From contig NW_027590144.1 of the NCBI RefSeq assembly GCF_964213995.1, positions 310,001 through 374,000 on the forward strand: 64,000 nucleotides of DNA, given 5' to 3'. How positions within the stretch are numbered: position 1 is the first letter of the stretch; each line of letters opens with the position of its first letter. The notes beneath the pieces are model-generated. The model saw only the letters and a list, made by a program, of their open reading frames with translations, was not told the DNA's origin and did not search any database. This document shows, piece by piece, positions 28,644 through 35,684 of the stretch. The position numbers and the translations under genes are program-made. Origin of the DNA: Mustelus asterias. Its lineage: Eukaryota.

Positions 28644-30501
28644 TTCCAGGGGTTGGATTCTGCTGTTGTTGTTTCTGCTCTCAGTTACATCCAGGACTGC
28701 ATTTTGTTCATTCTCACAGTTGGTCAATGGGGAGGGTCAGAGGGTTTCTTTCTGCTGGACTGGCCGGTCTCACGATTTTGCCTCCAGTGGCTGGTGCTCG
28801 GTAGTTAAGAGATATTTAGTTAGTATTTCTGTTTGAAAGCCCCCAAATGCTCATCCAATTTCCTTTGTAATTGTTTATTGTCTCCACTTCCTCCACCCTC
28901 GTAGGCAGCAAGTTCCAGGTCATTACCATTCGCTGCATCAAAATATTCTTCCTCACATCGCCCCCCTCCCCGCCCCTCCACCCCCCATCCCACATATCTG
29001 AACCAAAATCTGCACCCCCTTCGTCCTTGTCCCATCAGCTAATGGGAACAGCTTTTCTTTGTCCACCTTATCTAAACCTGTCCGAATCTTGTCCACCTCT
29101 ATCAAATCTCCCCTCAACCTCCTTTGCTCCAAGGGGAACAACCCCAGCCTGACCTTGACAATAAAGAACAAACTAACAGAATGTGTTAATACCTGAAATT
29201 AAATAGGAATGTTTAATTTCTGTTTTAAAGATATTGTGATTATACTTTCCTGGACAATAAAGGAATTGGAATAACTCACCTTGGGTGTGGTTGAATGGAA
29301 TATATCAATCTGGTATCCACCTACAGTCCAGTGAAAGTCTGGAATGTGTAGCTGGAAATCCCTCCCTAACAGCACTGTGGGTGTACTTACACCTCAGGCA
29401 TTGTAGCAGTTCAGGAAGGCAGTGTTGGGATTGACCACGGCCGAGGCAGCTACATACAGCCACATATTCTGTTATAATTGAAGGACTGCAGATTGAATGT
29501 GAGGCATTATGGGACTGGACTACCTTGACCACATTCCTGTGACTGCTCAGTTTCTGCAATCACGGACCATGAAAGCTGCTTAGCAGGGCCCTGACACAGG
29601 ACCTGGTAAGAATATTTACTCAGAATGAGTGAGAATTAAACTTATTCCAGGACTGGCTGGTGTTCAGCGGCTGAGATACTTGAATCTGTAAAAAGGGGGT
29701 CTGACCAATCAACAAACGATGATAGGTAGTTGGTTCAAAGCGTTTTCAGGCATTATTTAAATTATTTTATCATATATTTGTGACCTGATAGTCGGTGAAG
29801 TGACGGCATACTCCAAGTAGCAATGGACTGAAAAGCGGACCTCTGAGAGTAGATTCTAATAGTTATAATCTTACCCAAGCATGGCCAGTGAAAAATCAGA
29901 GCTCAAGTGGGGACTGGACAGGTCTCTTACCTGCCATTTGGAAACTAAGAACAAGAAACATATTGATTAAAATGATAAGAGAATAGAGCCAATCTTTCGA
30001 GTCTGGATTACATTTCAGAAGAGCTCTTATGAAGGGTCATCCAGACTCGAAACATTGGCTCTATTCTCTCTCCACAGATGCTGTCAGACCTGCTGAGATT
30101 TTCCAGCATTTTCTGTTTTTGTTTCAGATTCCAGAATCTGCAGTATTTTACTTTTATGATAAAATGATTAGTTCTGATTGGAATCCCCACGACCCTCCCG
30201 CAAAACAGAGGGAGTGGTGGCAAAAGGAGATAAAGGATAAAAAGGAGATAAAGGGTTTAAAATCGGAGGTTTTTTTCATAACCGGAAGTAGGGCCAGGAG
30301 AGGCCAGGGGAAGTTTTTGGAGGGTTTAAAAGTGCACCAAAGTATACAGCGGGCAGCATCGTAGCGGGCAGCAGAGTGAGTGGGAAGTTGAGTGAGCTGT
30401 CAGGGCTTTGGCTCACAGGGCTTGGACGAGCAGGGGTGAGTTTTTGTTTCCTTACACTCTTATTAACTTTTCACGGTCTTACTTGACATAAAGTGTCCAG
30501 T

Positions 30502-31431
30502 ATGAGTGTGAAACCAGTGTGCTGTTCCCAGTGTAGGATGTGGGAGGTCCTGGAGGCATCTGGCCTCCCGGACATCCACATCTGTGAGGGGTGTGTCGAG
30601 CTGCGGTTCCTGAGGGACCATGTTAGGGAGCTGGAACTGCAGCTCGAGGATCTTAGGCTGATGAGGGAGAATGAGGAGGTGATAGACAAGAGCTATCATC
30701 AGGTGGTCACACCAGGGCCACGGGAGGAGGCCAAGTGGGTGACGGCCAGGAAGGGTAAGGCTAGGGTGGTTGAGAGCACCCCGGTGGATTTGCCCCTGCA
30801 CAACAAGTACTCCTGCTTGAGTACTGCTGGGGGGGACAGCCCGCCTGGGGGAAGCAGCAGTGGCCGTGTCTCCGCAGTGGAGTCCAGCCCTGTAACTCAG
30901 AGGGCTAAGGAAAAGAGGAGGAAGGCGGTATTAATCGGGGACTCGATGGTGAAGGGGACAGACAGGCGTTTCTGCGGAGGTAGGCGGGATTCTCGCATGG
31001 TGGTCTGCCTCCCTGGGGCCGGGATCCAGGATGTCGCTCGTCGCGTCCCGGAAATCCTGAGGTGGGAGGGAGAGGAGCCTGAGGTAGCGGTACATATTGG
31101 TACCGCTGATGTGGGTAGGAAGGGAGAAGGGGTCATGAAAAAGGAGTACAGGGAATTAGGGAGACAGCTGAGAAAGAGGAAAGCAAAGGTAGTAATCTCA
31201 GGATTACTGCCTGTGCCACGGGAAGGTGAGGGCAGGAATGGAGTGAGGTGGAGGATGAATGTGTGGCTGAGGGACTGGTGCAGGGGGCAGGGATTCAGGT
31301 TCCTGGACCATTGGGACCTCTTTAGGGGCAGGGGTGATCTGTATACAAAAAACGGGTGGAACTTGAATCACACGGGGACCAATATCCTGTCCGGTAGGTT
31401 GGCTAAGGCTACTGGGGAGAATTTAAACTAG
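30502..31431 (+). CDS. CR1 ORF1p: Cys-rich zinc finger, coiled coil and SGNH/GDSL esterase-like domain
   Basis: CSQC..CEGC, heptads LRDHVRELELQLEDL, VLIGDSMVK, CLPGA, HIGT, ISGLLP. First ATG at 30502. Confidence 0.92.
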   Translation: MSVKPVCCSQCRMWEVLEASGLPDIHICEGCVELRFLRDHVRELELQLEDLRLMRENEEVIDKSYHQVVTPGPREEAKWVTARKGKARVVESTPVDLPLHNKYSCLSTAGGDSPPGGSSSGRVSAVESSPVTQRAKEKRRKAVLIGDSMVKGTDRRFCGGRRDSRMVVCLPGAGIQDVARRVPEILRWEGEEPEVAVHIGTADVGRKGEGVMKKEYRELGRQLRKRKAKVVISGLLPVPREGEGRNGVRWRMNVWLRDWCRGQGFRFLDHWDLFRGRGDLYTKNGWNLNHTGTNILSGRLAKATGENLN

Positions 31432-31436
31432 ATAGG

Positions 31437-34400
31437 TTGGGGGGAGGGGAGCTAGAAGAGTTGACCAGGATCAAGGAACTAATTGATGGGGGGGAGGATG
31501 CAGGGGTAAGGGGAATTACAAAATTAATGGTAGAGGAGAGGGTGCAAGTGAATGAAGGCGGTAATTTAGAAAAGGGAGTAGAGGGAGAGGGTGTTCGCGA
31601 CTCATCAAAGCGGGTCCAGATAAAAGCTGGAATAAGGACACTTTGCCTGAATGCACGAAGCATTCGGAACAAGGTAAATGAGTTGATGGTGCAAATCAGC
31701 ACAAGTGGGTACGATCTAGTGGCCATTACAGAAACGTGGCTGAAAGGTGACCAGGACTGGGAGATGAATATCCAGGGGTATCAGGCGTTTAGGAAGAATA
31801 GACAGGAAGGAAAAGGTGGTGGGGTCGCGCTATTAATAAGAGATAATATCAGGGTAGTACTGAGGGATGACATAGGCTCTGAGGAACAAAACGTGGAATC
31901 ATTATGGGTAGAGATGAGGAATAGTAGAGGGAGAAAGACACTAGTAGGTGTGGTATATAGGCCCCCAAATAATAATGTTGAGGTAGGGAGGGCTATAAAC
32001 AAGCAGATAAGGGATGCGTGTAAAAACGGAACGGCAATAATCATGGGGGACTTCAACATGCACATTGACTGGCAGACTCAAGTCAGTAAGGGTGGAATGG
32101 AGGAAGAGTTCTTAGAATGCTGTCGGGATAGTTTCCTTGAACAGCATGTTACGGAACCGACGAGGGAACGAGCTATTTTGGATCTGGTATTGTGTAACGA
32201 GGTAGGTAGAATTAAGGATCTTATTGTGAAGGACCCTCTTGGGTCTAGTGACCACAATATGGTCGAATTTCTGATTCAGATGGAAGAGGAGAAAGTTTGG
32301 TCCCAAACCAGTGTCCTCTGTTTGAACAGAGGGAAATATGATAGGATGAGGGATGAATTGGCTAAGGTAGACTGGGAGAGCAGGCTGGCAGGTAGGATAG
32401 CTGAGGAACAGTGGAGGATTTTTAAGGAGATCCTTTTCAGTTCTCAGCAAAAATATATTCCAGCAAAAAACAAGGATTGTAAGAAAAGGGAGAACCAGCC
32501 GTGGACAACGAAGGAAATAAAGGAGAGTATTAAAATAAAAACAGCTGCGTACAGAGTGGCCAAAAATAGTGGAGAAACAAGTGATTGGGAAAAATTTAAG
32601 AAACAACAAAGAGAGACTAAGAAAGCGATAAAGAAAGGAAGGATAGACTATGAAGCTAGGCTAGCAATTAATATAAAAAATGATAGTAAAAGTTTTTATA
32701 AAAATATAAAAAGGAATAGAGTGGCTAGAGTGAATGTTGGACCCTTGGAGGACGAGAGGGGGGAGTTAATAGTGGGAAATGAGGATATGGCTGAGTCTTT
32801 AAATAAGTTTTTTGTGTCGGTCTTCACGGTGGACGACACAAATAGTTTGCCAAATATTAACGATAGAGGGTTGGCAGCAGGAGAAATACTTAATACAATT
32901 AATGTTACCAGAGAGGCAGTGCTGGGTAGACTAATGGGACTGAAGGTGGACAAGTCCCCGGGTCCGGATGGAATGCATCCCAGGGTATTGAAAGAAATGT
33001 CAGAGGTAATAGAGGATGCGTTAGTGATTATTTATCAAAACTCGTTGCATTCTGGGGTAGTGCCGGTTGATTGGAAAACGGCTAATGTTACGCCGCTGTT
33101 TAAAAAAGGAAGGAGACAAAAGGCGGGTAACTATAGGCCGGTCAGCTTAACGTCTGTAGTAGGGAAAATGCTGGAATCCATTATTAAAGAGGAGATAGCA
33201 GGGCATCTGGATAGAAATGGTTCGATCAATCAGACGCAGCATGGATTCATGAGGGGAAAGTCGTGCTTGACGAACATGTTGGATTTTTATGAAGATGTGA
33301 CTAGGGCGGTTGATGGAGGAGAACCGGTGGATGCGGTGTTTTTGGATTTCCAAAAGACGTTTGATAAGGTGCCCCATAAAAGGCTGCTGAAGAAGATTAG
33401 GGCACACGGAGTTGGGGGTAGTGTGTTAAAGTGGATTGGGGACTGGCTATCCGACAGGAAGCAAAGAGTCGGAATAAATGGGTGTTTTTCCGGTTGGAGG
33501 AAGGTAACTAGTGGCGTGCCGCAGGGATCGGTACTCGGGCCGCAACTGTTTACCATTTATATAGATGATCTGGAGGAGGGGACGGAGTGTAGGGTAACGA
33601 AGTTTGCAGACGACACAAAGATAAGTGGAAAAGTGAATCGTGTGGAGGACGGAGAAGATCTGCAGAGAGATTTGGACAGGCTGAGTGAGTGGGCGAGGAT
33701 ATGGCAAATGGAGTATAACGTTGAGAAATGCGAGGTTATACACTTTGGAGGAAATAATAACAAATGGGATTACTATCTCAATGGAAACAAATTAAAACAT
33801 GCTACCGTGCAAAGGGACCTGGGGGTCCTTGTGCATGAGACGCAAAAGCCCAGTCTGCAGGTACAACAGGTGATCAAGAAGGCAAATGGGATGTTGGCCT
33901 ATATTGCGAGGGGGATAGAATATAAAAGCAGGGATGTCTTGATGCACCTGTACAGGGCATTGGTGAGGCCGCAGCTGGAATACTGTGTGCAGTATTGGTC
34001 CCCTTATATGAGGAAGGATATATTGGCATTGGAGGGAGTGCAGAGAAGGTTCACCAGGTTGATACCGGAGATGAGGGGTTTGGATTATGAGGAGAGGCTG
34101 AGGAGATTGGGTTTGTACTCGTTGGAGTTTAGAAGGATGAGGGGGGATCTTATGGAGACTTATAAGATAATGCAGGGGCTGGATAGGGTGGAGGCGGAGA
34201 GATTCTTTCCACTTAGTAAGGAAGTTAAAACTAGAGGACACAGCCTCAAAATAAAGGGGGGTCGGTTTAAGACAGAGTTGAGGAGGAACTTCTTCTCCCA
34301 GAGGGTGGTGAATCTCTGGAATTCTCTGCCCACTGAGGTGGTGGAGGCTACCTCGCTGAATATGTTTAAAGCGCGGATGGATGGATTCCTGATCGGTAAG

Positions 34401-34442
34401 GGAATTAAGGGTTATGGGGATCAGGCGGGTAAGTGGTACTGA
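31437..34442 (+). CDS. CR1 ORF2p: APE endonuclease plus reverse transcriptase
   Basis: LNARSI, ITETWL, YRPP, GDFN, SDH; NYRPVSLTS, QHGF, PQGSVLGP, FADD. Uninterrupted for ~1000 codons. The true start is uncertain (first ATG 31527; see the frameshift finding). Confidence 0.96.
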   Translation: MGGGELEELTRIKELIDGGEDAGVRGITKLMVEERVQVNEGGNLEKGVEGEGVRDSSKRVQIKAGIRTLCLNARSIRNKVNELMVQISTSGYDLVAITETWLKGDQDWEMNIQGYQAFRKNRQEGKGGGVALLIRDNIRVVLRDDIGSEEQNVESLWVEMRNSRGRKTLVGVVYRPPNNNVEVGRAINKQIRDACKNGTAIIMGDFNMHIDWQTQVSKGGMEEEFLECCRDSFLEQHVTEPTRERAILDLVLCNEVGRIKDLIVKDPLGSSDHNMVEFLIQMEEEKVWSQTSVLCLNRGKYDRMRDELAKVDWESRLAGRIAEEQWRIFKEILFSSQQKYIPAKNKDCKKRENQPWTTKEIKESIKIKTAAYRVAKNSGETSDWEKFKKQQRETKKAIKKGRIDYEARLAINIKNDSKSFYKNIKRNRVARVNVGPLEDERGELIVGNEDMAESLNKFFVSVFTVDDTNSLPNINDRGLAAGEILNTINVTREAVLGRLMGLKVDKSPGPDGMHPRVLKEMSEVIEDALVIIYQNSLHSGVVPVDWKTANVTPLFKKGRRQKAGNYRPVSLTSVVGKMLESIIKEEIAGHLDRNGSINQTQHGFMRGKSCLTNMLDFYEDVTRAVDGGEPVDAVFLDFQKTFDKVPHKRLLKKIRAHGVGGSVLKWIGDWLSDRKQRVGINGCFSGWRKVTSGVPQGSVLGPQLFTIYIDDLEEGTECRVTKFADDTKISGKVNRVEDGEDLQRDLDRLSEWARIWQMEYNVEKCEVIHFGGNNNKWDYYLNGNKLKHATVQRDLGVLVHETQKPSLQVQQVIKKANGMLAYIARGIEYKSRDVLMHLYRALVRPQLEYCVQYWSPYMRKDILALEGVQRRFTRLIPEMRGLDYEERLRRLGLYSLEFRRMRGDLMETYKIMQGLDRVEAERFFPLSKEVKTRGHSLKIKGGRFKTELRRNFFSQRVVNLWNSLPTEVVEATSLNMFKARMDGFLIGKGIKGYGDQAGKWY

Positions 34443-35684
34443 TCCACGTCAGATCAGCCATGATCTTATTGAATGGCGGGGCAGGCTCGAGGGGCTAGAT
34501 GGCCTACTCCTGCTCCTATTTCTTATGTTCTTATAAGGATGATAAAGTCTGGGTTCTGATTCTCATGTAGAACTAACAAAACGAATGAATCAGTTTATAA
34601 AGAACAGAAGTGACCCATCCCTAACAAAAACTGATCAAATTAAAATAATTCGGTTGAGGAAGAAAACAAAAAGAATAATAGATGAAGTTTAAAATTAAGA
34701 TTGTTTTGTTGTTAGAGATTTTTTAAATTATGTAAAGTGATGTAATTGTGTGCCAAGTTTTTTTCTGCTCACTCCCCACCCCTTTAGGTTCAGTAGAAAA
34801 GTTAATTTGTTTTTAAATCGCCCGGAAACTTATGTCTATTTTGCTTTATAATTGAGGATTTATGGGAACCAGTTAAATGTGGAAATTTTAAGCATAGCCA
34901 CTAAGACCATATTTGCTTGCGGTGTGACCCCGAGTCAGGAACAGTTTCAGAGTCAACAACCTGTTCCTGAGAACATGGCAGAGGGTCATGCTGCTGTGGA
35001 TGTTCACCAGGAAATGGTTCCAGCTTTGCCAGTTGACTCTGCTGTGGGAGTGGAAGAGGAATGTTTATGTACAGATTCTCAAACTACCTCTTCACCTCCC
35101 ATTCCAGAAACACCATTACAAGATTTACCAGTGGTATTGTACAGGTCGCAATGCAACCACAAAGCTTCTGACAGACTTCCGTATTGTTAAAGACATTACT
35201 TTGTTGTATTTCTGTCCTGATGGGGGATTGAAATTTAAGGGGAGGAGAAGTGTTACAGAGTGTTCTTCTCAACCTCTCTCCCTTCTGAGCACGTGCGGAC
35301 TTTGGGCGGGGTTTCAGTCTGCAAGTCCAGGCTGGTTCCAATGCTCCTGTTTCCTTTTGTTTGCCAATGATTTTTAAACTTTGTTATTTATTTATATAAA
35401 GAACATCCTGCTTTTAACAATGCATTTGACGACCTTATCTGTGACTGAAGTTCCCACAATTGTAAAGCAGGAGATTAGTTAAATGGACAGCCTGAATTGA
35501 GAGACAATTAAAGAATAAATGATTCATTAATACAGTTGTTAGGCTGGAAATGTAAATTTGAACACAAAAGTTTATAACGTTTAGAATTATAAAGATATAA
35601 AGAATGTTTAAAATGCTGTGGGAATTATAAAATGTTCCCTTCTGAGGCCAACAGAATAGAAAAAAAACAGATAACAAGACTTGT

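Follow-up and report, generated by a model that had tools for sequence, protein, structure and literature searches.

Results

A CR1 element with overlapping reading frames

The window analyzed in this study is a stretch of 64,000 nucleotides (nt) from the forward strand of Mustelus asterias contig NW_027590144.1 (positions 310,001 to 374,000), and it contains a full-length copy of a CR1 long interspersed nuclear element (LINE) in which both open reading frames (ORFs) are intact (Table 1). The arrangement at the junction of these frames suggests that the second, ORF2, is reached from the first, ORF1, by -1 programmed ribosomal frameshifting at a slippery heptamer. The copy lies in a 3.68 Gb genome, and its ends are marked by an empty site: contigs from runs X1 and X8 depart from the window at 30240 and resume with letters matching 34537 onward. 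The family is young, the best 29 of 40 listed genome matches being 95-100% identical across the junction. The features of the CR1 class are present, namely an SGNH esterase in ORF1 (domain at approximately 30988-31347, Pfam PF13472, E 1.5e-10), an apurinic/apyrimidinic endonuclease (APE) and a reverse transcriptase (RT) in ORF2 (PF03372, PF14529 and PF00078, with the RT at approximately 33108-33755), and a 3' end formed by a short tandem repeat rather than poly(A). The endonuclease domain starts approximately 70 codons past the heptamer, with the Asn of LNARS at 31650 and a Glu at 31731 as landmarks. This Glu falls on residue 43 of the human L1 endonuclease in a weak alignment (E ~0.6, not significant alone), and we take it to be the catalytic residue.

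ORF1 terminates with GAG AAT TTA AAC TAG. The first-pass annotation of this DNA had placed a T_TTA_AAC heptamer here in the X_XXY_YYZ phase of ORF1, immediately before the stop codon, and a check of the sequence bears this out. It had also described the -1 frame as the frame of ORF2, opening at a TAA shortly before the heptamer, without an ATG until well into a linker of approximately 70 codons, and those positions are likewise correct. From the heptamer onward the -1 frame reads FKLDRLGGG, and past the TAA it is open for 1011 codons, to 34442. The gap of 5 codons between the -1-frame stop and the heptamer is the commonest spacing in most families. Other in-phase X_XXY_YYZ heptamers occur once in the 310 codons of ORF1 and five times in the 1012 codons of ORF2 (6 in 1322 in total), and two further TTTAAACTAA matches lie in the window, both away from ORF1/ORF2 junctions. 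Because a slippery-type heptamer is by itself not rare, the case depends on conservation.

Table 1. Features of the CR1 copy, by position in the window
Feature	Position	Strand	Basis or remark
Full-length CR1 LINE, both ORFs intact	30241..34536 (ends approximate)	+	Empty-site contigs
ORF1, 309 amino acids, ATG at 30502	30502..31431	+	Cys-rich N-terminus and SGNH/GDSL esterase
Upstream TAA of the -1 (ORF2) frame, 5 codons from the heptamer	31404..31406	+	
Candidate slippery heptamer T_TTA_AAC, X_XXY_YYZ phase with ORF1	31422..31428	+	Reading frame and conservation
ORF2 part of the predicted fusion, 1004 amino acids	31428..34442	+	APE endonuclease and RT
TAG stop of ORF1, adjacent to the heptamer (other families have TAA or TAG)	31429..31431	+	
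Linker open in the -1 frame	31432..31631	+	First in-frame ATG 31527-31529, not conserved across families
Candidate stimulator, the G-rich motif GGGG-N3-GGG at a fixed 10 nt past the heptamer	31439..31448	+	Gly-x-Gly in the -1 frame
Approximate module boundary, ORF1 lineage upstream, linker and ORF2 of another lineage downstream	31449..31480	+	
3' untranslated region, short, ending in a short tandem repeat	34443..34533	+	Sequence

Conservation of the heptamer

Conservation was assessed with 250 loci from the same genome, which were the best matches of one DNA and five protein searches and included 80 stretches hand-picked for open ORF1s; own-genome searches with strict E-value cut-offs returned nothing. 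The set is not random, and a first look showed up to approximately 67,000 ORF1 candidates. Protein homology, and not the motif, served to anchor the ORF1 ends. Removal of duplicates and weak anchors left 235 junctions, which were grouped into nine families of 7-63 copies each, 13-42% apart, and 10 singletons.

At 253 anchored ORF1 ends, TTTAAAC-TAR (R, A or G) was found in 225 and TTTAAAT-TAR in 10, and of the 18 ends with neither, 16 differ by a single base, one has a deletion and one is a false anchor. Conservation at this single position goes beyond chance, and the phase seen in the window is kept in all nine families. When the commonest codon of each family was compared column by column, the codon before the Leu was found to encode Gly, Asn, Arg or Ser, yet it ends in T in 9/9 families, the Leu codon is TTA in 9/9 and the Asn codon is AAC in 9/9. 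Single-codon usage in the controls was 0/12 for conserved columns with at least four codons and 2/21 for degenerate columns. As background, TTA accounts for 2-4 of the 23-30 Leu codons of ORF1, and T stands at 16-27% of third positions. This suggests that the nucleotides are conserved beyond the need of the protein. Several third positions are also invariant at 31404-31421, near the -1-frame stop, and this stretch is possibly an upstream part of the signal.

Phase, linker and start codons

The modal distance from the ORF1 stop to the endonuclease Asn was 137 or 143 nt in family F13, 155 nt in F8 and F9, 134 or 131 nt in F2, 221 nt in F10 (the family of the window), 137 nt in F1, 197 nt in F5 and 182 nt in F14, and every one of these distances (131-221 nt) is 2 modulo 3. 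The -1 offset is thus the family mode in eight of nine families, the ninth (F3) being too decayed to call. Among individual copies 178/217 are in -1 phase, and another 18 were without an anchor. The linker, which had been described as open in the window, has no stop in the -1 frame in 160 of 172 in-phase copies from 12 lineages, as against 2 and 0 copies for the other two frames. One copy, L140, is open for 1014 codons starting at the heptamer.

The in-frame ATG is not conserved, as had been anticipated: among the families examined it is shared in F10 (at codon 35) and F1 (at codon 25). A shared AUG before the endonuclease is absent in F2, F13, F8, F14, F18 and F19, and no Met precedes the endonuclease Glu in 21/24 copies of F2, 37/43 of F13 and 14/20 of F8.

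The G-rich motif

Counted from the stop, positions +10 to +13 and +17 to +19 have G as their modal base in 12/12 lineages, three of which are single copies. Both Gly codons of the motif are GGG, a codon that makes up 22-56% of ORF2 Gly codons overall. The first-pass annotation had placed a G-tract approximately 7 nt past the heptamer; a GG does start 6 nt past it, but the conserved G-run starts at 10 nt. A stem-loop or pseudoknot 5-9 nt downstream was not found, with pseudoknots not explicitly modelled and few C residues available to pair. Hairpins formed locally or between upstream and downstream sequence were rejected as candidates, none being conserved. Long-range pairing with the 3' end was also rejected, since the motif ranked among the top 6% of 17-mers when matched to the tail in only 3/37 full-length copies. 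The C-rich tail of the copy in the window pairs with the G motif on paper, and most families are without that tail. Both readings of the motif, as RNA or as Gly-x-Gly, require the frame or the RNA to matter just after the heptamer.

A module swap at the junction

Identity between the window copy and F9 is 0.92 at the ORF1 end and 0.96 from the stop to +20, then 0.63 over the linker and endonuclease. The endonuclease of the window clusters with F5, contigs of relatives part from the window at 31448, and congruence of the trees is rejected by approximately unbiased (AU) tests (p 9e-9 and 8e-23; 17 rows, with groups named after the first trees were seen). Judged from these sequences, F10 is an ORF1/ORF2 chimera in which the cassette stayed with ORF1 and the -1 phase survived. 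L199, a lone copy, is another chimera that is in phase. ORF1 shuffling between LINEs has been proposed before (PMC4120745; works are cited by PubMed Central number, for the parts of them that were available).

Two side observations concern these chimeras. The 3' tail of the window copy (34443-34533) is unlike the tails of the families closest in ORF1, which is consistent with a module swap. In L199 the linker is first of F9 type and leads into the start of one endonuclease, and this part continues in frame into a linker and endonuclease resembling F10.

Relatives outside this genome

The ORF1 homologs that carry names come from sharks and rays, and of the 30 homologs in the first search, 25 have Leu-Asn or Ile-Asn at the C-terminus or at the corresponding place. 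Published consensuses extend the comparison. The supplement of PMC13343379 holds approximately 1,000 LINE consensuses, and the first 400 letters of each were read by eye, a reading that gives no denominator. In the portion covered, TTTAAAC-TAR stood at the ORF1/ORF2 junction in 17 of 20 matches. The taxa were catshark, dogfish, sawfish, stingray and elephant shark (a chimaera) among cartilaginous fishes, together with coelacanth, bowfin, a halosaur (a teleost, Crack record), bullfrog, alligator and crocodile; a bearded-dragon (lizard) record carries a TGA form of the motif. Synonymous spellings of Leu-Asn-stop stood at a CR1 junction in 0/7 matches in the same records. Alligator records have the identical 7-nt spacer and the G motif, and some other records are without the motif. 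Because these consensuses contain small indels, frames can be checked by eye in few of them. No bird or turtle junction fell within the first 400 letters of the records. The part of the PMC4316615 supplement that was searched gave two motif matches, both within ORF2, and a motif search of the PMC4120745 supplement gave none.

A metagenome search returned two loci of one distant family, and a search of viral contigs for relatives returned none. Pattern scans gave 3 and 2 matches, which we attribute to chance. A search for annotated longer fusion proteins, which is a weak test, gave one unrelated partial match only.

Several records are of interest in their own right. In the metagenome loci L091 (approximately 1130-1620) and L092, which are 27% identical to ORF1, ORF1 and the endonuclease share a frame with a lone TGA then C between them and no Met before the endonuclease; this distant esterase LINE is a candidate for stop-codon readthrough to the same fusion, in one family. 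Distant ORF1 homologs with 24-35% identity (P0046, P0048, P0049, P0051-P0053, P0055 and P0057) end in Phe-Phe-Arg, Gly-Phe or Leu-Asn, C-termini that are compatible with U_UUU_UUY and G_GGU_UUU heptamers and are known from protein alone. In P0025, an annotated stingray protein, the esterase runs into the -1 linker and endonuclease (...REGFKLNLQG...), and this is probably a copy with a one-base indel. The entry P0032, an SGNH hydrolase attributed to Pseudomonas aeruginosa, shares 51% identity with ORF1 and has Gly-Leu-Asn at its C-terminus; it is likely a bacterial record contaminated with fish LINE DNA. The window itself also carries more than 20 5'-truncated ORF2 fragments of related LINEs, none of them with an ORF1.

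Discussion

The data presented in this study make it very probable that -1 programmed ribosomal frameshifting yields an ORF1-ORF2 fusion protein from this element, with a predicted length of 1313 amino acids. The first-pass annotation had proposed such a fusion from one copy, and the proposal has held up across families in the phase of the heptamer, the -1 offset, the open linker and the lack of a conserved ATG. Under this model most ribosomes would stop at the end of ORF1 and release the ORF1 protein (ORF1p), while a minority would slip one base back at U_UUA_AAC and continue into an esterase-linker-endonuclease-RT fusion. The slip would involve tandem movement of the Leu and Asn tRNAs, giving GENLN-LDRLGGG as the main junction peptide and GENLK-LDRL as a minor one, and it may set a fixed ratio of ORF1p to fusion in the manner of gag-pol. 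The adjacent stop and the G-rich motif 10 nt downstream may stimulate slippage, with the motif forming a weak G-quadruplex or serving as a linear element bound by protein or ribosome rather than as a pseudoknot.

Several results weigh against this model, and those on the stimulator are considered first. There is no conserved downstream stem-loop (z -2.3 to +1.6 across 12 representatives), the folding energy of the junction consensus is -0.21 kcal/mol with no conserved fold, and a G-quadruplex is predicted in only 7/12 lineages. No long-range partner is conserved, the 3' tails differing between families, and some of the published consensuses covered have a weak G motif or none. Other points concern the counts. 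The families share ancestry, so the counts are not independent, and one third base is kept in 12/49 control columns too, several of them just upstream of the heptamer. Of the copies with an anchor, 39/217 are out of phase, many by one base from the family mode; these are read as post-insertion indels. A linker ATG is present in all F1 and F10 copies, and an in-frame TAATG overlaps the ORF1 stop in F3 and F17.

The linker belongs to the same list. Its amino acids are without detectable constraint, with 20 synonymous to 41 non-synonymous differences among shared variants and 79 to 217 among rare ones (p 0.35), whereas the same test on the endonuclease control gave p 0.006. Purifying selection on linker amino acids was thus not detected. 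The depletion of stops among shared linker variants is suggestive but not significant (0/61 vs 17/313, p 0.087). The linker behaves as a flexible spacer that needs to stay open.

ORF2 protein could instead be made by termination and reinitiation, at a nearby AUG or independently of AUG, with the heptamer kept as part of a reinitiation signal or for the protein. The TAATG and linker ATG codons named above speak for this, and because of them reinitiation could serve F3, F17, F1 and F10; an AUG-independent start is also thought likely for mammalian LINE ORF2 (PMC5009743). However, since most F2, F13 and F8 copies have no Met ahead of the catalytic Glu, reinitiation at an AUG is not the general route, and the column that holds the TAATG encodes Met, Ile, Asp, Glu or Val depending on the family. 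Reinitiation would also work without a slippery heptamer, without a constant -1 phase and without a frame that is open back to the stop, and we regard it as improbable.

It is highly improbable that ORF2 comes into frame through splicing or through an mRNA with a start of its own, with an AG at or just past the ORF1 stop as acceptor. Such an AG lies within 10 nt of the start of the stop codon in every family (the TAG itself, or a CAG at +8 to +10), but its position differs by family, there is no polypyrimidine tract, and the invariant heptamer would be left unexplained. No RNA source was listed for the element. One contig of 941 nt, from a library labelled RNA-Seq whose RNA status is a guess, spans 30887-31825 ungapped. 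The seven joints listed for assembled contigs, all from run X8, include no GT..AG, a result that cannot show an absence of splicing. The motif might finally be kept for a reason other than recoding, such as a C-terminal Leu-Asn of the esterase or an RNA packaging or recombination signal, with the -1 phase an inherited accident. The frequent Leu-Asn or Ile-Asn at that place in the first-search homologs and the invariance of some third positions just upstream would fit such a reason. Yet constraint on the protein has no means of holding the third base constant in a codon whose amino acid changes, or of favouring TTA among the Leu codons, and the phase has outlasted many changes of linker length and a module swap. 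Families without an AUG would moreover have no route to their endonuclease, and we find this explanation barely credible.

How LINE ORF2 is translated is an open question, and the reinitiation model of L1 is usually generalised. The CR1 descriptions of 1997-2005 from turtle and chicken reportedly include a short ORF1/ORF2 overlap and may already mention frameshifting. The word 'frameshift' does not occur in the main texts of PMC13343379, its preprint, PMC4120745 and PMC3905857. No statement on CR1 frameshifting was found in the literature searched, which omits most subscription papers and the first CR1 descriptions; this includes the available parts of PMC11835228, PMC2734521 and PMC5006619, and the portion of PMC5009743 covered does not mention CR1. 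Canonical CR1 elements with a type IV esterase ORF1 share the APE and RT of ORF2 and the short tandem-repeat tail, but the literature on them treats ORF1 and ORF2 as two proteins (PMC4120745, PMC13343379).

The closest parallels come from other recoded elements. In Dictyostelium, ORF2 of TRE5-A and TRE3-A is stated to require a -1 frameshift (PMC5911963); these are APE-type LINEs as well, but they belong to another clade with another ORF1 and an amoeba host, whereas CR1 is a vertebrate element of the esterase-ORF1 group. Coronavirus ORF1a/1b of the infectious bronchitis virus (IBV) type uses the identical heptamer, U_UUA_AAC, which is among the most shift-prone on mammalian ribosomes (PMC5009743), and retroviral gag-pol likewise has a structural protein first and the polymerase in the -1 frame. 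Unlike both of these systems, CR1 has no pseudoknot or stem-loop found at 5-9 nt and no protease in the product; its heptamer is followed at once by the stop, and a short G-rich motif lies 10 nt away. RNA G-quadruplexes placed after UUUAAAC stimulate -1 shifting with an optimum of 6-8 nt (PMC3919603), but the CR1 motif has just two invariant G-tracts and, as noted, is not predicted to form a quadruplex in every lineage. A minority of stimulators begin 12-15 nt downstream, including linear elements bound by trans-acting factors (PMC5009743). Mammalian L1 is similar to CR1 in its bicistronic LINE RNA and low ORF2 output; it differs in having a spacer between the ORFs, with unconventional initiation favoured (PMC5009743), whereas the CR1 ORFs overlap at the slippery site.

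A broader proposal, which we hold to be moderately likely, is that all esterase-type CR1s of jawed vertebrates make their RT only as a Gag-Pol-like fusion. They would do so through a portable cassette linked to ORF1 (U_UUA_AAC, a stop, 7 nt and the G-rich motif) that is older than the split of sharks and bony vertebrates, has a stimulator free of structure and moves along with ORF1 in swaps between lineages.

Esterase-type CR1 is the dominant retrotransposon of most vertebrate genomes. On the sequence evidence, its junction signal is real and deeply conserved, and it may be regarded as a variant of a known recoding mechanism. The fixed G-rich motif and the apparent lack of a folded stimulator make it a candidate for an unusual frameshift signal of vertebrate genomes, and as a cassette of 30 nt it would be directly testable. 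If frameshifting is the route to ORF2, it would explain why many CR1 ORF2s are without a start codon and would change how these elements are annotated, and the CR1 RT would be born fused to a membrane-binding esterase, ORF1p, like the Gag-Pol of retroviruses.

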